In this document: piece by piece, positions 1,422 to 16,629 of the stretch | How the letters are laid out: every line of letters starts with the position of its first letter | Numbering within the stretch: position 1 is the first letter of the stretch | IMG/VR virus record: IMGVR_UViG_2541047916_000004 | Reading direction: 5' to 3' (one strand) | From: a virus | Lineage: Duplodnaviria; Heunggongvirae; Uroviricota; Caudoviricetes | DNA length: 31,226 nt | Translations under genes and position numbers: made by a program | Notes under the pieces: model-generated | Databases searched by the model: none | What the model was told of the DNA's origin: nothing | What the model saw: the letters and a program-made list of their open reading frames with translations, nothing else

Positions 1422-3893
1422 TTAAAAATCAGCCTGACTCGGGATCAGTTTTTGCCAGATAACTGAAACGTATTTTGCCTGGTAACGGGCGTCATCAAGT
1501 GCATTATGGCGCTCACCTTCGAATGGAATAGCCGTTCTGGCATCGAAGTCTATGGCTTTCCCCAGCTCAACGATTGTGCGTACATCGCGATCGTTGTAGT
1601 AACGCCACGGGCAGGGGATCCCCTGCCGTTCGTATGAACGGCGCAAAATCGTGTTGTCGAAGTTGGCTCCATTTCCCCAAACCTGAACAAAAAATTCACC
1701 GGAGTTTTCGTCGATAAATTCCCGCAATTGTAACAGTGCATCATCTAACGGGATTTCATCGGTCATAATGGCAGATTGCGCTTCGCGTGATTGCTTAAGC
1801 CACCATTTAATGGTGTCCCGATCAATGACTCCGCCAGCAGTTTCCAGATCGATAGTCTTACTAAATTCCGGTCCCATATCTCCGGTTTGCGGATCGAAAA
1901 ATATTGCACCTATTGAGATGATCGGGGCATCAGGATTTTTTCCCATGGTTTCAAGGTCGATCATTAGATGGTCACACGTCCTGCTGGTGGATGTGATTTC
2001 GTGATGACCGTTCACCTTAATTGAGCGATCTGCCGTCTCGCCAGTTTCATTATCGCTATCGTGATGCTGATTGCCGCCAGTGTTCTCCTTGTGTGGATGT
2101 TCAGCGCCTTCCATTTCCTCCGGATCATCTTCCTGAACTTCAACCTGATACTCTTCATCGAATGTTTCCTGGTATGTTGCGTCGCCCATCACCGCGCCAC
2201 AATCAGGGCAGTTGCCGCCGCCGGTCTGACCGCAGGCGGTGCAGACTTTTTCCACTTCCTGTTGCGCCACTGGTTCAGGCTGTTTCGTTTCTGGCTCGTT
2301 TTGTAACGCATTTGGGCTGTTTTGTTCCGCTTTTTGGTAGTTCCGTTCCGATTCATGCTGGTTCTGGTTCACAGAATCGCGGGTCTGGATCCCCTTAACC
2401 CATTTCGGATCATTCGGGTCACTAATCCCTTCAACAAATTCACCACGTGATGCAGCAAGCAACTTATCGGCGTCAGGCTGGCTGATATTGGCTGCCTGCA
2501 TAATTTTGTTTACTTCGTCAGCGGTAACTTTTATCGGCTCTGGTTGTTCTGAATCTTCAGCGGTATCTACATTTTGCGGTAAGCCCGTGTATGTGCCATT
2601 TTTTCGGGCAAAATATTCTTCTTTTGTGATTTCAGTGGCGCCAGCAGCCAGTGCCTTATCCAGACCAGAAAGTTTGTTTGCGCGACCGCATTTTTCTCCG
2701 TCCTTATCTGCGAAGAGGAAATAGAACGGCCCCTCACGCTCTACAGATGGTTCAGCTTCCGGCGCGGTTTCATTTTTTGGGATATCAGATACCTCAGTTT
2801 CCACTGCATCAGTTTGTGTTTCTGATGACTGGAGAACATCAACAGTGCCCAGGTCTGTTTCTTCATTCTCAAACACGCCCTTTGTCGTCAGGTATTCGCA
2901 GATATATTTGTTCAGTGCTATGGGATCTTTGTGAATGTCGATCGGACGCTCACGGACAAGGCCAAAAATAGTTTGGCGGTCGTAGCGAAGGGCATCAGGC
3001 TGTTTGCGCATTGATGCCGAGATACGCTTCCAGTCTTCGCGGTCGTTGTCGATAACTTCATTTTTTGCCCAGCGATGGATGCTGCCGTCAATGTTTCCGG
3101 CATCCACATCACCAGGCCAGAGAGCGTAGGCCAGTTCGTCATCCAGTGTTTTCCATGTCTGCTTGTATTCGCGATGAATGGCAGCAATGACCGGGCTGAT
3201 TTTTCCTGTTGAATTTTCACTGTGCTGTTGATTGGTTCTGGCGCGGGCGAGATCAATAACAGACGTGTATTTTCCGGTTTCCTTACGTTCACCTTCGCGA
3301 CGTTTTTTCCAGATGCGCATCTCTGCCTGAATTTCGGGCCATTTGGCACCAGGCTTACATTTATGCTTAACCCACCCGATGGCATGCAGCTTAAGCTCCG
3401 GATACATGGCGTTAACTTCTGGCATTTTCATCAACGCTTCAACGATATGTCCGTCGAATGTTGCCATGTCTTCCTGCAACAATTCCTGTGCGCTAATAAC
3501 CATATCAACGGTGATGTTTTCACATGTGTCGAACTTAACCATGACAGCGTTCTGTACTTCAGGGGCCAGCTTGTCAAAAGTGACGTTCATCGGATCGGAT
3601 TCAGTCTCAACCGGGACAAAGGAAGCAGACTCCTCATCCCAGCGGTTTTCCTGCATATATTCAGCATCCCAGGAATCGAGGGCAGGGCGGGGTATGCCGG
3701 GTTTATCCTCACAGACAATAAATTTATAAGCGCAGTCCTGAGCTGCAGGGAATTGCTCCAGAAATTGCCAATGAAATTTTGCGCGTGCGCGACGCTCATC
3801 ACCAGCTTCAATGGCAGTGGCCACCGCAACAGCGCTATCTTCTTTTATGGCCTGTTCATCAGGAATAGCAGCGCAAATAAAGACCTTACTCAT
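1422..3893 (-). CDS. Large phage exonuclease with C-terminal DnaQ-like DEDDh 3'-5' exonuclease domain
   Basis: 823-aa ORF; C-terminal 200 aa carry Exo I (MIDLETMG), Exo II (VWGNGANFDNT) and Exo III (HNALDDARYQ) motifs; acidic N-terminal region contains a CTACG...CPDCG zinc-ribbon-like motif. Confidence 0.75.
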   Translation of the reverse strand: MSKVFICAAIPDEQAIKEDSAVAVATAIEAGDERRARAKFHWQFLEQFPAAQDCAYKFIVCEDKPGIPRPALDSWDAEYMQENRWDEESASFVPVETESDPMNVTFDKLAPEVQNAVMVKFDTCENITVDMVISAQELLQEDMATFDGHIVEALMKMPEVNAMYPELKLHAIGWVKHKCKPGAKWPEIQAEMRIWKKRREGERKETGKYTSVIDLARARTNQQHSENSTGKISPVIAAIHREYKQTWKTLDDELAYALWPGDVDAGNIDGSIHRWAKNEVIDNDREDWKRISASMRKQPDALRYDRQTIFGLVRERPIDIHKDPIALNKYICEYLTTKGVFENEETDLGTVDVLQSSETQTDAVETEVSDIPKNETAPEAEPSVEREGPFYFLFADKDGEKCGRANKLSGLDKALAAGATEITKEEYFARKNGTYTGLPQNVDTAEDSEQPEPIKVTADEVNKIMQAANISQPDADKLLAASRGEFVEGISDPNDPKWVKGIQTRDSVNQNQHESERNYQKAEQNSPNALQNEPETKQPEPVAQQEVEKVCTACGQTGGGNCPDCGAVMGDATYQETFDEEYQVEVQEDDPEEMEGAEHPHKENTGGNQHHDSDNETGETADRSIKVNGHHEITSTSRTCDHLMIDLETMGKNPDAPIISIGAIFFDPQTGDMGPEFSKTIDLETAGGVIDRDTIKWWLKQSREAQSAIMTDEIPLDDALLQLREFIDENSGEFFVQVWGNGANFDNTILRRSYERQGIPCPWRYYNDRDVRTIVELGKAIDFDARTAIPFEGERHNALDDARYQAKYVSVIWQKLIPSQADF

Positions 3894-4362: not shown

Positions 4363-4933
4363 TATCGCGTCCTCAACAATGAATTTTGTGATGCAGTGCC
4401 TGGTGCCTCCAGGTGACGTTAACCAGTTAACAATTAACTCCGGGTTAGTTGATGCTCGTTACGCCCGTAAAATACCGCCTTACTGCTTTAACTGTTCCGC
4501 GTGCGCATAGCCGCATTCACCGCATCACAAAATTCACTTTAAAAAGGGCGGCAGAGCAGTCACGGAGTAAAACTGATACCGCCAAATGTCACCAGAAAAT
4601 TGATAACAGAGGGCGTTGTAGCGGGGTTGTCACTTAAGCGTATGGTCAACCTGACAACCCGGTGCATTTTCTGGAGCAATGGAGGAAACCCCAGCCATAC
4701 TTACCGCCGCGCCATTTCGCGGAGTGCCACAACCGGAAGCGCACGGTCGAACTAAATTTAACGACACCGTACAGAGAGACCAATTTCGCCGTGCGCTTTC
4801 GCGTTATGCCCTGACTTTTCAGGGACATATCCTTTCAGTAAGCTGTCAGTGCCGGATGCTCACCCGTGTCCGGCGCACGCACTCCACCTGACCCGTGGAG
4901 AACTCCTTAATTACCAACCCTCAGGAGGGTGAA

Positions 4934-6442: not shown

Positions 6443-6497
6443 TACCGCAAGGTAAACAACCTGTGGGTATTGACTTTTGTTTACCTGTGGGTATTCT
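6443..6497. promoter_or_regulatory. OR-like operator/promoter region
   Basis: TACCGCAAGGTA (6443-6454), partial AACCTGTGGGTA (6459-6470) and TACCTGTGGGTA (6482-6493); candidate rightward promoter TTGACT (6470-6475), 16-nt spacer, TATTCT (6492-6497), ahead of the Cro-like gene at 6523. Confidence 0.5.
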
Positions 6498-7213: not shown

Positions 7214-7235
7214 AAGCGCGGTGTTCGGGGGTTTT

Positions 7236-8198
7236 ATGAGCAGCAAGCTTCATGGTCTTGTCTGGGAAGGGTGCGCCTTCACCGGCATGATCTTATCCAG
7301 GGTGGCGGTTATGGCCCGTCTTGCAGACTACAGCAATGACGAGGGCGTGTCATGGCCTGCCATTGAAACTATCCGGCGTCAGATCGGTGCAAGAAGTGAA
7401 TCCACAGTGAAATCGGCTATTGCAGAACTGGCGAAAGAGGGCTGGCTGACGAAGGAAGAGCGTAAGGTCGGTGGGCGTAATGTAAGCAATATCTATCGGC
7501 TTAATGTGGAAAAACTCGAAGCAGCTGCGGCGGCGGCGCGTGAGTCATATAAACCGAAAAGAAAAATTAGCCCGGCAAAAAATGACCCGTTAACAGTTGA
7601 CCCGTCAAATATTGACCCCTCAACGGTTGACCCGTCAAATTTTGATGGATCAACTGTTGATAAAAAACTGCCGATTAGGGGGGCGATGATTGACCCCGAT
7701 CCGTCAGTATTAAAACCTGATCCGTCAGATAAAAGATCTTCTTGTCCGGACGCTTCGCAACCGGACCCGCAGACGGCTGAACAGGATTTTTTAACCCGAC
7801 ACCCTGACGCGGTTGTGTTCAGTGCGAAAAAACGCCAGTGGGGAAGTCAGGAAGATTTGGTGTGCGCACAGTGGATCTGGGGACGAATCGTGAGTCTTTA
7901 CGAGCAGGCGGCCAGCTATGATGGCGAGATCACTAGACCGAAAGAACCCAACTGGACAGCATGGGCCAATGACGTTCGCACAATGCGGATGCTGGATGGC
8001 AGAACTCACAGACAAATTTGTGAAATGTTTGGGCGTCTCCAGCGGGATTCGTTCTGGGTAAAAAACATCATGAGTCCGGCAAAACTCCGGGAAAAATGGG
8101 ATGAACTGGTTATCCGCCTGGGGCGTTCGCCTGCGCAGCGTTGCGTGAATCACATTTCTGAACCGGACACTGAAATACCGCCGGGATTCAGGGGGTGA
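7236..8198 (+). CDS. Replication initiator, lambda O-like (replisome organiser)
   Basis: About 320 aa (ATG 7236; alternative GTG 7221); N-terminal HTH-like segment; gene body contains DNA iterons encoding DPSNIDPSTVDPSNFDGSTVD; followed directly by a DnaC-like loader gene. Confidence 0.7.
   Translation: MSSKLHGLVWEGCAFTGMILSRVAVMARLADYSNDEGVSWPAIETIRRQIGARSESTVKSAIAELAKEGWLTKEERKVGGRNVSNIYRLNVEKLEAAAAAARESYKPKRKISPAKNDPLTVDPSNIDPSTVDPSNFDGSTVDKKLPIRGAMIDPDPSVLKPDPSDKRSSCPDASQPDPQTAEQDFLTRHPDAVVFSAKKRQWGSQEDLVCAQWIWGRIVSLYEQAASYDGEITRPKEPNWTAWANDVRTMRMLDGRTHRQICEMFGRLQRDSFWVKNIMSPAKLREKWDELVIRLGRSPAQRCVNHISEPDTEIPPGFRG
7583..7730. repeat. Iteron array (putative phage replication origin) inside the O-like gene
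   Basis: Direct repeats TGACCCGT / TTGACCCGTCAAAT (7597-7610 and 7627-7640) / TTGACCCCTCAAC / TTGATGGATCAACT, then an A-rich tract and two GATCCGTCAG repeats (7698-7707, 7720-7729). Confidence 0.5.
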
Positions 8199-8204
8199 CG
8201 TGTC

Positions 8205-8951
8205 ATGAAAAACATTGCGGCAGTTGGGGTTCTTGAACGTATTCGCAGACTTGCACCACAGGGGTCGGTTCCACCGTACCGGACGGTGGAGGAGTGGCGG
8301 GAATGGCAACTTGCTGAAGGACGAAAACGCAGCGAGGAGATTAACCGCCAGAATCGCCAGTTGCGGGTGGAAAAAATCCTGAATCGTTCGGGCATCCAGC
8401 CTCTGCACAGCAAATGCTCGTTTGCAAATTATCAGGTGCAGAACGACGGGCAAAAATACGCGCTGAGCCAGGCCAAATCCATAGCTGACGAACTGATGAC
8501 CGGGTGCACGAATTTTGTGTTCAGCGGTAAAACCGGCACCGGGAAAAATCACCTTGCAGCGGCGATGGGCAACCGGCTGATGGTGAAGGGGCGCAGCGTG
8601 ATTATCGTCACCGTGTCTGACGTCATGAGCGTGTTGCATGACAGCTACGACAACGGCAAATCCGGGGAAAAATTTTTACAGGAGCTTTGCGGGGTTGATT
8701 TGCTGGTCCTGGATGAAATAGGCGTTCAGCGGGAGACGAAAAACGAGCAGGTGGTATTGCACCAGATAATTGATCGCCGGACAGCATCACTGTGCAGTGT
8801 CGGGATGTTAACAAACCTGAATCATGCCGCAATGAGTACGCTTCTTGGTGAGAGGATTATGGACCGCATGACCATGAACGGTGGTCGATGGGTGACGTTT
8901 AACTGGGATAGCTGGCGTCCAAATGTCAGCAATATGAGGGTTGTGAAGTAA
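8205..8951 (+). CDS. DnaC-like helicase loader (AAA+ ATPase)
   Basis: 248-aa ORF with Walker A GKTGTGKNHLAAA and Walker B-like LLVLDEIG; immediately downstream of the O-like gene. Confidence 0.85.
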   Translation: MKNIAAVGVLERIRRLAPQGSVPPYRTVEEWREWQLAEGRKRSEEINRQNRQLRVEKILNRSGIQPLHSKCSFANYQVQNDGQKYALSQAKSIADELMTGCTNFVFSGKTGTGKNHLAAAMGNRLMVKGRSVIIVTVSDVMSVLHDSYDNGKSGEKFLQELCGVDLLVLDEIGVQRETKNEQVVLHQIIDRRTASLCSVGMLTNLNHAAMSTLLGERIMDRMTMNGGRWVTFNWDSWRPNVSNMRVVK

Positions 8952-9758: not shown

Positions 9759-10184
9759 ATGGCAAAAGTATTTACACAAGAAGAGCGGGAAAAAATTAAA
9801 GGGCAGGTTGTTGAACTTGTACGTCTGAGCGGTCGCGAGACGTTGCGGCAACTGGAAGCCAGGACAGGTGCGACAAGATATCTGATGAGTGTTCTCGCCA
9901 GAGAGCTGGTTGCCAGTGGCGATGTATACAACTCTGGTTACGGGTTATTCCCGTCTGAACAGGCGCGTAAGGACTGGCAAAATGCTCGCAAAAAACTCTC
10001 AAGGGCAAAGGTGAAGAAACCTGCAGTGGTTGATCCGGACCTTATCTGGTCGTTACCAGACGGCGAAATACGCCGCTACGACAGGCGCCTGAATATAATC
10101 TGTCGCGAGTGCCGGAAGAGCGAAGCTATGCAGCGTGTACTGGCATTTTATCAAGGAAATGTTAGGTATTTTAGACGTTACTAG
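9759..10184 (+). CDS. Hypothetical protein (winged-helix-like N-terminus)
   Basis: ATG at 9759 preceded by GGAGG; about 141 aa; N-terminal segment resembles the repeats in the upstream protein. Confidence 0.5.
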   Translation: MAKVFTQEEREKIKGQVVELVRLSGRETLRQLEARTGATRYLMSVLARELVASGDVYNSGYGLFPSEQARKDWQNARKKLSRAKVKKPAVVDPDLIWSLPDGEIRRYDRRLNIICRECRKSEAMQRVLAFYQGNVRYFRRY

Positions 10185-10337
10185 ATTAAAGAGCATTAGT
10201 TCAGATGTGAATTGACATTTTCATGGCGCAGGGTAGAGCCAGCGTGGTTGTCCGCTTTGCGTCAAAACCAGATATTACCAGATTTAGACATATATTCCCG
10301 ATAGACCTGCTCTGATGCTACACTCTGTGCTATTTTC

Positions 10338-11024
10338 ATGACCCCAATAAAAATATTTATGACTATTGCTGATTTCAAACGGCCTAAATTGGAGCTCCCA
10401 AACGGGGCAAACAAACTACTACTGCACTCTTGCTGTGCTCCATGTTCCGGTGAAGTGATGGAGGCGCTTCAGGCCTCGGGAATCGACTACACCATCTTTT
10501 TCTACAACCCGAACATTCATCCTCAGAAAGAGTATTTAATTCGTAAGGATGAAAATATTCGCTTTGCTGAACAACACGGCGTGCCGTTTATCGATGCTGA
10601 TTACGACACCGACAACTGGTTTGAACGTGCCAAAGGAATGGAATGGGAGCCTGAGAGGGGGATCCGTTGTACCATGTGTTTTGACATGCGTTTTGAGCGG
10701 ACAGCGTTGTACGCTGCTGAAAATGGTTTCAGTGTGATCAGCAGTTCACTGGGCATTTCACGCTGGAAAAATATGCAGCAGGTTAACGAGTGTGGGCGGC
10801 GAGCTGTTGCGCATTATCCGGGTATGGTGTACTGGGATTATAACTGGCGCAAGCAGGGCGGCTCGTCCCGTATGATTGAAATCAGCAAGCGCGAAAAATT
10901 CTATCAGCAGGAATATTGTGGCTGTGTGTATTCTCTGCGCGATACCAATCTACACCGCAAATCTCAGGGACGCCCTCTTATCAAAATTGGCCAACTCCAC
11001 TACGGAAAAGAAGAGAAGGAGTGA
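10338..11024 (+). CDS. queH: QueH-like (DUF208) putative epoxyqueuosine reductase
   Basis: 228-aa ORF with N-terminal [11 protein letters not shown] and C-terminal YCGCVYS cysteine motifs characteristic of QueH/DUF208 Fe-S proteins; assigned from motif recollection, not a search. Confidence 0.7.
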
Positions 11025-11261
11025 TTTTATGGATCACCTTTCTGATTGATTTCATATTGGCGAGGTGACGTGAGTTAAGTAGAATGGCTGCGGGTGCTTG
11101 AGGCTATCTGTCTCAGGCATGAACACTGAAAGGCAGATAGAGAAAAGCCCCAGTTAACATTTCGCGTCCTGCAAGACGCTTAACATTAATCTGAGGCCCA
11201 ATCTATGTCTCACAAATGTAGGTTAGCCTCTTACGTGCCGAAAGGCAAGGGGAAGCAGGCT

Positions 11262-11417
11262 ATGAAGCAGCAAAAGGCGATGTTAATCGCCCTGATCGTC
11301 ATCTGTTTAACCGTCATAGTGACGGCACTGGTAACGAGGAAAGACCTCTGCGAGGTACGACTCCGAACCGGCCAGACGGAGGTCGCTGTCTTCACAGCTT
11401 ACGAACCTGAGGAGTAA
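11262..11417 (+). CDS. hok: Hok/Gef family type I toxin
   Basis: 51-aa peptide MKQQKAMLIALIVICLTVIVTALVTRKDLCEVRLRTGQTEVAVFTAYEPEE, near-identical to Hok/RelF-family toxins; the longer in-frame ORF from 11205 is probably an artefactual extension. Confidence 0.85.
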   Translation: MKQQKAMLIALIVICLTVIVTALVTRKDLCEVRLRTGQTEVAVFTAYEPEE

Positions 11418-11485
11418 GAGACCTGGCGGGGGAGAAATCCCTCGCCACCTCTGATGTGTCAGGCATCCTCAACGCACCCGCACTT

Positions 11486-11513
11486 AACCCGCTTCGGCGG
11501 GTTTTGTTTTTTT
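11486..11513 (+). terminator. Rho-independent terminator downstream of hok
   Basis: ACCCGC-TTCG-GCGGGT stem-loop followed by a T-run (TTTTGTTTTTTT). Confidence 0.55.
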
Positions 11514-11584
11514 CTGGCATTCTGGTTTACAATTCGCACGTCAGCCTGAACACCTGACACCTGCTGCGCCAGCAGAGAAAACAG

Positions 11585-11857
11585 ATGGCGCACAAAACCA
11601 AATTTCACAATTCTGATACCGACCTTGCCATCCGGCATGGGCGGCGTTCACACGCATTTAAAACCGACTGGTACCAACACCCACCATGTACTGAAGAACA
11701 GGCCGAATGGCTAATTCATAACTACCGCAGACGCGGATACGAGATTAAGAAAGCCCTCAGCCTCGATTATCGTCACTGGATAATCTCCGTCAGGCTTCCT
11801 TACTCTGAACGCCCACCGCGTCCGTCCCGCACATTCCAGCAACGCATCTGGAGGTAA
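11585..11857 (+). CDS. Hypothetical protein
   Basis: 90-aa ORF whose TAA stop lies inside the GGAGG RBS of the next gene (translational coupling). Confidence 0.45.
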   Translation: MAHKTKFHNSDTDLAIRHGRRSHAFKTDWYQHPPCTEEQAEWLIHNYRRRGYEIKKALSLDYRHWIISVRLPYSERPPRPSRTFQQRIWR

Positions 11858-12914: not shown

Positions 12915-13280
12915 ATGACTGAACGCATAGAATTTGTTTTGCCTTACCCGCCAACGGTGAACACTTACTGGCGACGTCGTGGCAGCACATATTTTGTATC
13001 AAAAGTCGGTGAGCGTTATCGCCGTGATGTGGCGCTTATTGTTCGCCAGCAGCAACTGAAATTAAACCTGTCCGGAAGGCCGGCAATAGAAATTATTGCA
13101 GAGCCACCGGATAAGCGCCGTCGTGACCTGGACAATATCCTGAAGGCACCACTGGATGTACTGACGCATGCGGGGCTGCTCATAGACGACGAGCAGTTTG
13201 ATGAAATTAATATTGTGCGCGGTCAGCTTGTTCCTGGTGGGCGGTTGGGGATAAAAATCACAGAACTGGAGTACGCATGA
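12915..13280 (+). CDS. rusA: RusA Holliday-junction resolvase
   Basis: 121-aa ORF with the RusA-family pattern (YWRRRG... PPDKRRRDLDNILKAPLDVLTHAGLLIDDEQ...GGRLGIKITELE). Confidence 0.9.
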   Translation: MTERIEFVLPYPPTVNTYWRRRGSTYFVSKVGERYRRDVALIVRQQQLKLNLSGRPAIEIIAEPPDKRRRDLDNILKAPLDVLTHAGLLIDDEQFDEINIVRGQLVPGGRLGIKITELEYA

Positions 13281-13966
13281 ATAACCAGTATTTACAGTTT
13301 GTTCGTGAGCAACTCATGATTGCCACCGCCGATTTGAGTGGATCAACAAAAGGGCAGCTTGAGGCCTGGCAGGAGAATGCCATGTTTGATACAGGGCGTT
13401 ACAGGCGTAAAAAAATCCGGTACCGCGATGAAGTGACTGGAAAAATGATAACGCGGGATAATCCACCAATCCCGGGAAAGCAATCGCTGGCGAAGGGGGT
13501 GTCAATTCCTCTCGTCAGTCCGGTTGAGTTTTCGACATCATCGTGGCGGCGGGCTGTTCTGTCTCTTGAAGAACATCATAAAGCCTGGTTGTTGTGGTGT
13601 TACAGCGGGAGTATTTGTTGGGAATATCAGATCGCGATAACGCAGTGGGTGTGGAATGAATTTAAAACCCGGTACGGCACCAGAAAAATTGCAGGGAAAA
13701 CGCAGGAGCGCGTGAAGAAGTTGATCTGGCTGGCGGCACAGGATGTCAGAGGATGGATTACCGGGTGTGAGGTCTACCAGAGACAGGAGCTTGCCAGACT
13801 GTGTGGAGTTAAGCCTGATAACTGGAGCCATAATTATGCGAACTACTGGCGTGAGATGTGCGATATTTTTAAGAGTCTCGATAGAGAATCTGTGATTTGC
13901 ACCGTGAAAATAAGAGCGCAACAAAAAGCGACTTTTTCACGACGAGATATTGCAAAAGTCAATTAA
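13277..13966 (+). CDS. Q: Late-gene antiterminator Q-like protein
   Basis: 229-aa ORF coupled to rusA by ATGA overlap; conserved lambdoid position just upstream of a terminator and the late region; contains Cys/His-rich segment. Confidence 0.65.
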   Translation: MNNQYLQFVREQLMIATADLSGSTKGQLEAWQENAMFDTGRYRRKKIRYRDEVTGKMITRDNPPIPGKQSLAKGVSIPLVSPVEFSTSSWRRAVLSLEEHHKAWLLWCYSGSICWEYQIAITQWVWNEFKTRYGTRKIAGKTQERVKKLIWLAAQDVRGWITGCEVYQRQELARLCGVKPDNWSHNYANYWREMCDIFKSLDRESVICTVKIRAQQKATFSRRDIAKVN

Positions 13967-14528: not shown

Positions 14529-15578
14529 ATGCTTAATACTGTAAAAATATCCAGTTGTGAGTTAATCAACGCCGACTGCCTGGAATTTATCCGGTCGTTA
14601 CCCGAAAATTCTGTTGACCTGATAGTCACGGACCCGCCGTACTTTAAAGTGAAGCCTGAGGGCTGGGATAACCAGTGGAAGGGCGACGATGATTACCTGA
14701 AGTGGCTGGACCAGTGTCTGGCGCAGTTCTGGCGGGTGCTGAAACCTGTCGGAAGTCTTTACCTGTTCTGTGGTCATCGCCTGGCATCTGATATCGAAAT
14801 CATGATGCGTGAACGCTTCAGTGTGCTGAACCATATTATCTGGGCGAAGCCGTCCGGACGCTGGAACGGATGCAACAAGGAAAGCCTGCGGGCGTATTTC
14901 CCCGCCACAGAGCGCATTCTGTTCGCGGAACATTATCAGGGGCCGTATCGTCCGAAAGATGCCGGGTATGCGGCGAAGGGCAGTGCACTGAAACAGCATG
15001 TGATGGCCCCGCTGATTTCTTACTTTCGTGATGCGCGCGCTGCCCTGGGGATAACGGCAAAACAGATTGCAGATGCCACAGGAAAGAAAAACATGGTGTC
15101 GCACTGGTTCAGTGCCAGTCAGTGGCAGCTACCGAACGAAAGCGATTATCTGAAATTACAGTCGCTGTTTGCCCGGGTGGCAGAAGAGAAACATCAGCGC
15201 GGTGAACTGGAAAAGCCCCACCACCAGCTGGTGGATACGTATACGTCACTGAACCGGCAGTATGTGGAGCTGCAGAGTGAATATAAGCATCTGCGGCGGT
15301 ATTTTGGTGTGACGGCGCAGGTGCCGTACACGGATGTGTGGACACATAAACCGGTGCAGTTCTATCCCGGGAAACATCCGTGCGAAAAACCGGCAGAAAT
15401 GCTGCAGCAGATAATCAGCGCAAGCAGTCGTCCGGGTGACCTGGTTGCAGATTTTTTTATGGGCTCAGGTTCAACGGTAAAAGCGGCACTGGCGCTTGGG
15501 CGTCGTGCGATTGGCGTTGAACTGGAGACCGGACGTTTTGAGCAGACAGTCAGGGAAGTTCAGGATTTAATCGTTTGA
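14529..15578 (+). CDS. Orphan DNA methyltransferase (beta-class N6-adenine or N4-cytosine)
   Basis: 349-aa ORF; DPPY catalytic motif near the N-terminus (LIVTDPPYF) and FxGxG AdoMet motif near the C-terminus (DFFMGSGST); no adjacent restriction endonuclease ORF. Confidence 0.85.
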   Translation: MLNTVKISSCELINADCLEFIRSLPENSVDLIVTDPPYFKVKPEGWDNQWKGDDDYLKWLDQCLAQFWRVLKPVGSLYLFCGHRLASDIEIMMRERFSVLNHIIWAKPSGRWNGCNKESLRAYFPATERILFAEHYQGPYRPKDAGYAAKGSALKQHVMAPLISYFRDARAALGITAKQIADATGKKNMVSHWFSASQWQLPNESDYLKLQSLFARVAEEKHQRGELEKPHHQLVDTYTSLNRQYVELQSEYKHLRRYFGVTAQVPYTDVWTHKPVQFYPGKHPCEKPAEMLQQIISASSRPGDLVADFFMGSGSTVKAALALGRRAIGVELETGRFEQTVREVQDLIV

Positions 15579-15627: not shown

Positions 15628-15703
15628 GGCCCTTTAGCTCAGTGGTGAGAGCGAGCGACTCATAATCGCCAGGTCGCTGGTTCAAATCCAGCAAGGGCCA
15701 CCA
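15628..15703 (+). tRNA. tRNA-Ile2-like (anticodon CAU; ileX/ileZ-type)
   Basis: 76 nt cloverleaf: acceptor GGCCCTT/AAGGGCC, D-arm AGCTCAGTGGTGAGAGC, anticodon loop CTCATAA, T-loop TTCAAAT, ACCA tail; closely resembles E. coli ileX. Confidence 0.85.
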
Positions 15704-15710
15704 TCACATA

Positions 15711-15787
15711 CCGCCATTAGCTCATCAGGAAAGAGCGCCAGCTTTCGAAGCTGGTTGCGCGGAGTTCGGGTCCCCGAAGGCGGTCCA
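15711..15787 (+). tRNA. tRNA-Arg(UCG)-like, possibly degenerate
   Basis: D-arm GCTC...GAGC and anticodon stem-loop CCAGC-TTTCGAA-GCTGG are clean; acceptor stem has one mismatch and the T-arm is non-canonical (loop TTCGGGT, mismatched stem). Confidence 0.45.
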
Positions 15788-15800
15788 TTATCTGTATCCT

Positions 15801-15877
15801 GCGTTGTTAGCTCAGCCGGACAGAGCAATTGCCTTCTAAGCAATCGGTCACTGGTTCGAATCCAGTACAACGCGCCA
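15801..15877 (+). tRNA. tRNA-Arg (anticodon UCU)
   Basis: 77 nt: acceptor GCGTTGT/ACAACGC, D-arm GCTC...GAGC, anticodon stem-loop ATTGC-CTTCTAA-GCAAT, T-arm ACTGG-TTCGAAT-CCAGT, GCCA tail. Confidence 0.85.
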
Positions 15878-15920: not shown

Positions 15921-16142
15921 TCTCACAATTCAGGCGGTTGACTGTTGTCTGGTTTGCGGGGAGTTTGTTAAAAGAAACTGGCATGGTGAATCCCCCTGTG
16001 CGGAGGGGCAATCAGCGAGTAGGTATATGGGATAATCGCGGATTCAGGTGCTGGTACTGAATTCACCGGGAGGCACCCGGCACCATGCAATGGCACATAG
16101 CGCCACTCTCCAGCCCCTCTCCGGAGGGGCTTTTCTGTGCCG
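15921..16142 (+). repeat. Copy A of a tandem paralogous hairpin-rich element (candidate sRNA unit)
   Basis: Shares with copy B the blocks CTCACAATTCAG..GTTGAC, GCATGGTGAATCCCCCTG(T/A)GCGGAGGGGC, GGTATA..ATAATC, TGAA(T/C)TCACCGGGAGGCACCCGGCACCATG and AGCCCCTCTCCGGAGGGGCTTT (terminator-like hairpin plus T-run); sequence between blocks differs. Confidence 0.45.
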
Positions 16143-16390: not shown

Positions 16391-16625
16391 TCACAATTCA
16401 GTAAGTTGACAGTTGCCTGTCAGACTGGGCATTTGTTAAAAAAATTTCGCATGGTGAATCCCCCTGAGCGGAGGGGCGACTGGTGACGGTATAATCTCTG
16501 ATTATCAAAACGAGAATGACGCGGGTTTAGTGGCACCGGGTTGAACTCACCGGGAGGCACCCGGCACCATGTGCATGATGATACAGATACGCGGCTTTAG
16601 CCCCTCTCCGGAGGGGCTTTCTTAT
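16391..16625 (+). repeat. Copy B of the tandem paralogous element (candidate sRNA unit)
   Basis: Same conserved blocks as copy A in the same order, including a perfect TATAAT (GGTATAATC) and the terminal GCCCCTC-TCCG-GAGGGGC hairpin followed by TTTCTT. Confidence 0.45.
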
Positions 16626-16629
16626 GGAC

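Follow-up and report, generated by a model that had tools for sequence, protein, structure and literature searches.

The last step of queuosine (Q) synthesis, the reduction of epoxyqueuosine (oQ) to Q, is catalyzed by two enzymes that belong to unrelated protein families. Escherichia coli harbors the full Q pathway (PMC5372724) and uses the cobalamin-dependent enzyme QueG; the oQ-to-Q step of this species was shown to be cobamide-dependent (PMC4646009, citing Frey 1988). Growth of E. coli was unaffected by deletion of queG (PMC11841063). The second enzyme, QueH, was described as a non-orthologous replacement of QueG (PMC5372724) and, in contrast to the latter, does not require cobalamin, thus representing the cobamide-independent alternative (PMC6461909). 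Structures of QueH are available for the Thermotoga maritima enzyme (PDB 7lc5, 7lc7, 9deu), which features an adenine-nucleotide alpha-hydrolase-like fold; the PDB also includes its C9S and D13N mutants.

Accessory genes of lambdoid prophages, such as morons and genes of the nin region, represent the second system to be considered. Their variable slot lies downstream of the replication genes and upstream of the antiterminator gene Q, and their distribution among related prophages is patchy. [quoted passage not shown] Literature searches combining QueH or epoxyqueuosine reductase with prophage returned incidental mentions only, and no discussion of a phage-borne QueH was found among them. Likewise, a literature search for the protein accession WP_000150294 returned no paper.

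The prophage-encoded queH gene described here resembles both systems. Its product shares six cysteines in the same places and the fold with T. maritima QueH, and differs from the latter by a cysteine at the position of Asp13 and by being carried on a prophage instead of the core chromosome. Similar to lambdoid accessory genes, it is patchily present in the variable slot upstream of gene Q, where other accessory cargo, i.e., hok/sok or a KwaB-like gene pair, flanks it.

Genomic Context of the Prophage-Encoded queH Gene

The window, i.e., the whole stretch of 31,226 nucleotides analyzed in this study (IMG/VR record IMGVR_UViG_2541047916_000004), shows, at positions 1–20426, an identity of 99.8% to a prophage that is integrated beside ompW in E. 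coli CE10. The source element is a Rac/Qin-type lambdoid prophage carrying queH in its early rightward region. Based on transferred PGAP annotation and Pfam matches, its left part comprises genes for an integrase, an excisionase, an 823-aa exonuclease, dicB with DicF, a repressor and YdaS-like and YdaT-like proteins. These are followed by an HTH_36 replication-type gene (7221–8198), an IstB/DnaC-like ATPase gene (8205–8951), DUF1627, DUF977 and queH. The right part consists of sok/hokD, DUF968, RusA, the antiterminator gene Q (13277–13966), a DNA methylase gene, three tRNA genes, a SASA esterase gene and genes for lysis and head formation. Hence, queH lies between DUF977 and sok/hokD, after the replication-type genes and before DUF968, RusA and Q, which confirms the nin-equivalent placement proposed in a preceding sequence-only reading of this DNA.

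Directly downstream of queH, a complete hok/sok type I toxin-antitoxin module was observed, composed of sok (11092–11267, Rfam, 120 bits) and hokD (11262–11417), followed by an intrinsic-terminator-like hairpin (11486–11503), all on the plus strand. A weak isrK-like match of 27 bits, which is below the cutoff, was located at 11426–11507. Several further features of the prophage were also recorded. The 823-aa exonuclease gene (1422–3893, minus strand) encodes a C-terminal Rv2179c-like 3'-5' exoribonuclease domain (226 bits) and is intact in the window, whereas it is frameshifted according to the annotation of the CE10 prophage. In the leftward early region, the antisense sRNA DicF (Rfam RF00039, 77 bits) was found at 4546–4597 on the minus strand, with dicB beside it in the PGAP annotation of CE10. 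Downstream of Q, an N6/N4 DNA methyltransferase gene (PF01555, 152 bits; 14529–15578, plus strand) precedes the tRNA cluster and appears as an orphan, since no restriction partner was seen. Moreover, the interval from the tRNA cluster to the SASA/NanS-like esterase gene contains two copies of the sRNA family STnc100 (136 and 160 bits; 15952–16142 and 16420–16629, plus strand). The head genes are immediately followed by an IS21-type pair on the minus strand, which encodes an IstB-like ATPase (28009–28764) and a transposase (28761–30260) whose C-terminal domain is of the Mu-transposase type. The prophage copy carrying this IS21 insertion is probably defective.

Assignment of the Prophage Protein to the QueH Family

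The proposal that the open reading frame encodes a QueH-like enzyme was evaluated by profile, residue and fold comparisons. The Pfam profile PF02677 (QueH/DUF208) matched with 221.5 bits (E = 1.1e-65; cutoff 23.5) and was covered from position 1 to 174 of 175, that is, over its full length. HMMER aligned the T. maritima QueH structure 7lc5 to residues 27–203 (E = 8e-22) at approximately 30% identity. No family was matched in an NCBIfam scan of the protein.

Based on the alignment to 7lc5 and the residue numbering of the 221-aa protein, the CCAPC motif (residues 25–29, with C25, C26 and C29) is encoded at 10431..10445 and the CGC motif (residues 187–189, with C187 and C189) at 10917..10925, so that both motifs named in the sequence-only reading were located. 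A third motif of the CxxC type, CTMC (residues 104–107, with C104 and C107), is encoded at 10668..10679; all three lie on the plus strand. The residues C25, C26, C104, C107, C187 and C189 align with C9, C10, C87, C90, C169 and C171 of the T. maritima enzyme. These six family cysteines (CC, CxxC and CxC), whose counterparts hold the metal center of the solved enzyme, are invariant across an alignment of 38 homologous sequences, including those of the CTMC and CGC motifs. Li et al. are said to have described in 2021 that the cysteines of T. maritima QueH are split between a [4Fe-4S] cluster and a single iron.

The seventh motif cysteine, C29, occupies the position of T. maritima Asp13 (D13). The CCAPC motif was present in 120 of 120 close homologues and, in an exhaustive HMMER search, in 103 of 118 motif-bearing family representatives, with CCAPD in three. 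The idea that CCAPC marks a subfamily divergent from the CCAPD-bearing T. maritima enzyme was rejected because cysteine is the majority state. A C-terminal tail of about 25 residues (HRKSQGR...IG..YG) is common to the QueH proteins of Enterobacterales and distinguishes the prophage protein from the T. maritima enzyme.

The AlphaFold2 (AF2) model computed with 38 homologues reached a pLDDT of 79.5 and a pTM of 0.80. Its best five PDB matches were the five T. maritima QueH entries (including 7lc5, 7lc7 and 9d86), showing TM scores of 0.83–0.87 (normalized to the target) and rmsd values of 2.5–2.9 Å. Other tRNA enzymes with an alpha-hydrolase fold scored far lower; the next matches, TilS, TtuA and LarE, were more than six orders of magnitude weaker. 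According to sequence, key residues and modeled fold, the prophage protein is a full-length QueH with predicted catalytic activity. Profile, solved structure, fold and genomic context thus agree with the initial view of a QueH-like enzyme carried as accessory cargo of the prophage.

Gene Start and Annotation of queH

The longest open reading frame at this locus extends from 10338 to 11024 on the plus strand (228 aa). PGAP annotation transferred from the CE10 prophage places the start at 10359 instead, predicting a protein of 221 aa. The ATG at 10359 is the same in all five prophage and phage alleles and matches the start of chromosomal homologues in the alignment, whereas the ATG at 10338 is replaced by ATT in the EcPF15 allele. 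The start of queH was therefore reassigned to 10359, and the coding sequence (10359..11024, plus strand, 221 aa plus stop) is identical to RefSeq WP_000150294.1. Accordingly, the seven extra codons of the longest frame (10338..10358, plus strand) probably represent a 5' leader rather than coding sequence.

RefSeq lists WP_000150294.1 as "epoxyqueuosine reductase QueH", a multispecies Enterobacteriaceae entry found on at least 1,000 contigs, i.e., public annotation already gives the correct name to the prophage gene. Regarding phage resources, the PHROG family phrog_3217 bears the label 'unknown function', and its profile match begins at residue 41 of the 228-aa frame. This position lies past the CCAPC motif and coincides with an ATG at window position 10458, after GGTGAAGTG. 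The late onset of the match suggests that queH is often called too short by phage pipelines, and the QueH version in phage databases seems to be truncated, unnamed and devoid of the CCAPC motif.

Chromosomal Relatives and Probable Origin of the Gene

Chromosomal queH genes whose products are 79–90% identical to the prophage copy were found in Citrobacter koseri, Klebsiella, Cronobacter, Erwinia, Providencia, Photorhabdus and others. The nearest relatives are those of the C. koseri/Klebsiella/E. albertii cluster (90% identity), followed by Erwinia (86%), Providencia (84%) and Photorhabdus (79%). These proteins correspond to the prophage QueH in length, motifs and start region. In contrast to the prophage copy, the chromosomal genes are located among housekeeping genes: no phage genes were nearby in Providencia, where queH lies beside tmcA and purC, in Photorhabdus, or at the locus of the C. 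koseri/Klebsiella cluster beside LysR and acetyltransferase genes. Compared to the nearest chromosomal copy, the prophage gene showed a dN of only 0.056; synonymous sites were saturated, indicating that the capture was not recent.

The gene queG was detected in 5426 of 5426 complete E. coli genomes. QueG homologues were also found in Photorhabdus, Rahnella, Pantoea and Morganella; Photorhabdus and Rahnella are genera with chromosomal queH, some species of which also hold queG. Possession of both enzymes is therefore not unusual in Enterobacterales. The statement that enterobacteria normally use QueG applies to E. coli, but in many Enterobacterales a queH gene resides on the chromosome. In E. 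coli lysogens both enzymes are always present, sharing the predicted reaction and the substrate tRNAs.

Distribution, Cassette Behavior and Selection

Of the 5,426 complete E. coli genomes, 1,032 contained the queH segment (approximately 19%), a number that fell to 995 when a tighter query was applied. Among the carriers, 706–707 showed at least 99% identity, and the records listed name the product 'epoxyqueuosine reductase QueH'. In IMG/VR, at least 80 viral contigs encode the identical QueH protein, and no added diversity was observed among 80 loci. Among isolated phages, a megablast search retrieved only Escherichia phage HannyBb, in which queH (annotated as 'hypothetical protein') occupies the same slot as in the window, preceded by the replication genes and followed by a hok/mok gene. 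Matches obtained by tblastn consisted largely of short contigs from the gut that lack annotation and of oversized 'phage' records resembling bacterial sequence.

Presence of queH varies at a fixed slot, and its neighbors differ between prophages (loci L010–L013). The upstream neighbor is DUF977, a remnant methyltransferase gene or a small hypothetical gene, and hokD, a KwaB-like pair or DUF1971 is situated downstream. Furthermore, many genomes possess DUF977 or hokD but lack queH, and queH occurs without hokD in several prophages. Based on these differing neighbors and on the independent occurrence of DUF977 and hokD, queH behaves as a small mobile cassette within an accessory slot. In E. coli DA33137 (NZ_CP029579.1, L013, 5993–7632), hokD is replaced right after queH by a two-gene unit including a gene annotated as 'Kiwa anti-phage protein KwaB-like', which marks the slot as a hotspot of accessory and defense cargo.

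Comparison of five prophage and phage alleles of queH revealed dS values of up to 0.45 and dN values of at most 0.023, corresponding to dN/dS ratios of 0.04–0.09. The seven motif cysteines are kept in five of five alleles; C145, a position that also varies in the family alignment, is the sole cysteine to differ between alleles. The low ratios at this synonymous divergence indicate that purifying selection has acted on QueH during its residence in phages and speak against a dead passenger.

Upstream Region and Predicted Transcription of queH

A non-coding gap upstream of the gene, with room for a promoter of its own, had been pointed out in the sequence-only reading, and it was found to span 10185–10358 (174 nt, 40% GC). 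Homology to the alleles of HannyBb, SC487 and DA33137 starts near 10240 despite differing upstream genes, suggesting that the segment 10240..10358 (plus strand) is the upstream part of the cassette and travels with queH between prophages. In the most divergent allele, EcPF15, the 5' homology begins a few bases upstream of TGcTACACT. This sequence (10316..10324, plus strand), located 35 nt before the start codon, is a candidate extended -10 element; four of five alleles retain it, and the DA33137 allele reads TGcCACACT instead. In a 90%-identical chromosomal homologue, TGCTAAAAT is found at the place aligned with it.

A sigma-70 consensus scan based on hexamer pairs found no plus-strand promoter within 10185–10358 and did not report TGcTACACT. 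Rfam searches at the gathering threshold over the whole window and with a permissive E-value over 10100–11600 yielded no riboswitch, including preQ1, and no family in the gap; near queH (10100–11600), only the downstream sok was obtained. Whereas classical morons feature their own promoter and terminator, no plus-strand consensus promoter or terminator brackets queH, which instead has the largely conserved TGcTACACT 35 nt upstream. A promoter of its own with this putative extended -10 element is a reasonable inference.

A pR-like site was identified by consensus scan at 6470–6497, and the terminator scan of the plus strand found none between this site and the hairpin at 11486–11503, past hokD. 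The default route of queH expression would therefore be read-through from the early rightward operon. Most likely, the gene would be transcribed mainly by such read-through upon induction, and in the lysogen a weak promoter belonging to the gene itself may contribute additional expression.

tRNA Genes and Codon Usage of the Prophage

A cluster of three tRNA genes is located at 15628–15877 on the plus strand and comprises an Ile2-type tRNA (CAU), Arg (UCG) and Arg (UCU). The CAU-anticodon tRNA was called Met by ARAGORN and Ile of the lysidine type by PGAP. The tRNA genes lie 4.6 kb from queH in the late region past Q, and none of them represents a queuosine substrate. The suggestion that queH and the phage tRNAs jointly adjust host translation therefore retains a thematic connection only.

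The codon usage of the phage genes was also analyzed, in view of a possible preference for Q-decoded codons. The fraction of NAU was 0.56 in early genes and 0.54 in late genes versus 0.53 in a K-12 sample, and the NAY share was 13.7–14.5% in phage genes versus 14.5%. Hence, no NAU/NAC bias relative to the K-12 sample and no sign of a special dependence on Q decoding was found in phage codon usage.

Proposed Function and Alternative Explanations

The best explanation, to which a probability of roughly 85% is assigned, is that this is a true queH gene which was acquired from the chromosome of another Enterobacterales member and whose product would convert oQ to Q on host tRNA without cobalamin. 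The prophage QueH would accordingly act as a cobalamin-independent iron-sulfur enzyme at position 34 of the host tRNA-Tyr, tRNA-His, tRNA-Asn and tRNA-Asp. Following its proposed capture, the cassette (approximately 10240–11024) would now circulate in E. coli within lambdoid prophages of the Rac/Qin type, where it occupies the variable slot that follows DUF977. Since QueG is always present and needs cobalamin, and since E. coli does not synthesize cobalamin de novo, the prophage QueH most plausibly provides a B12-independent route. By analogy, it would free the last step of Q synthesis from the B12 supply in the way that MetE backs up MetH. Observations on phage-infected Shewanella (bioRxiv 10.64898/2026.03.05.709803) indicate that oQ-to-Q conversion can become limiting and subject to regulation in the course of infection. 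The benefit of such a backup enzyme may be small, as queG mutants show little phenotype. Activity of the enzyme on oQ-tRNA, its time of expression and a benefit to the lysogen or the phage were inferred from the features described above.

A more far-reaching version, in which queH is a lysogenic-conversion gene with a weak promoter of its own that uncouples Q maturation from cobalamin in about one fifth of E. coli strains, is considered doubtful.

DNA modification, defense or counter-defense and neutral hitch-hiking all rank far lower than the function in tRNA-Q maturation. The Q-bearing tRNAs are precisely those cleaved by colicin E5-type nucleases, and it is conceivable that queH participates in conflicts between phage and host or between phages, acting in counter-defense or superinfection exclusion through the Q/oQ state of the four tRNAs with GUN anticodons. 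This might occur by altered susceptibility to anticodon nucleases or by a Q-dependent stress response of the host. The variable content of the slot, with sok/hokD in the window and the KwaB-like Kiwa pair in E. coli DA33137, would be compatible with such a role. Moreover, phage infection of Shewanella increased Q and decreased oQ by induction of queG, and Q promoted phage resistance (bioRxiv 10.64898/2026.03.05.709803). However, PADLOC assigned no family to QueH at E<=0.01 in a scan of QueH and four neighbors, no partner gene is conserved across the queH alleles, and the protein is nearly unchanged from the chromosomal housekeeping QueH, giving no sign of a new function. A role in conflict was thus regarded as improbable.

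Even lower probability was attributed to queH being a functionless passenger that hitch-hikes with the adjoining hok/sok addiction module. The redundancy with queG in every E. coli genome, the occurrence of queH in only about 19% of these genomes and the IS21 insertion in a possibly defective prophage would be expected for such a passenger, but strong purifying selection across alleles up to the dS of 0.45, with the motif cysteines retained throughout, speaks against it. In addition, queH is present without hokD in several prophages and also resides in HannyBb, a viable isolated temperate phage. Least probable of all appears a function of QueH in 7-deazaguanine modification of phage DNA (Dpd-like or dPreQ/dG+ type) instead of tRNA. 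Phages do use the preQ0 branch for modification of their own DNA (PMC6884629), and queH is located in the phage early region; QueH, however, acts after QueA on an epoxide known only in tRNA, and Hutinet et al. found no QueA, QueG or QueH in the DNA-modifying viruses analyzed (PMC6884629). As previously noted for this DNA, a DpdA/Tgt-like transglycosylase partner is missing from the window, and FolE, QueC, QueD, QueE and QueF were also absent from the 20 open reading frames scanned with Pfam and from the PGAP annotation of the CE10 prophage. The identity of 79–90% to chromosomal QueH proteins in housekeeping contexts likewise contradicts a role in DNA modification.

Significance of Prophage-Encoded QueH

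The prophage queH is an ordinary and slightly under-discussed phage cargo, and its product is an unremarkable QueH family member that implies no new mechanism. An enzyme specific for Q maturation of tRNA represents ordinary cargo in lambdoid prophages of E. coli, being present in approximately 19% of complete genomes and maintained under purifying selection. Its identification as QueH also offers a cleaner annotation for the PHROG family phrog_3217.

If the predicted activity holds true, the locus would provide a simple case of a prophage that frees a host tRNA modification from vitamin B12. Phages are well known to bring tRNAs; if queH indeed acts in lysogenic conversion, phages would tune host tRNA modification directly, beyond importing tRNAs. 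In that case, NAU/NAC decoding, stress or virulence traits or phage yield could change in B12-poor niches such as urine, blood and the competitive gut.
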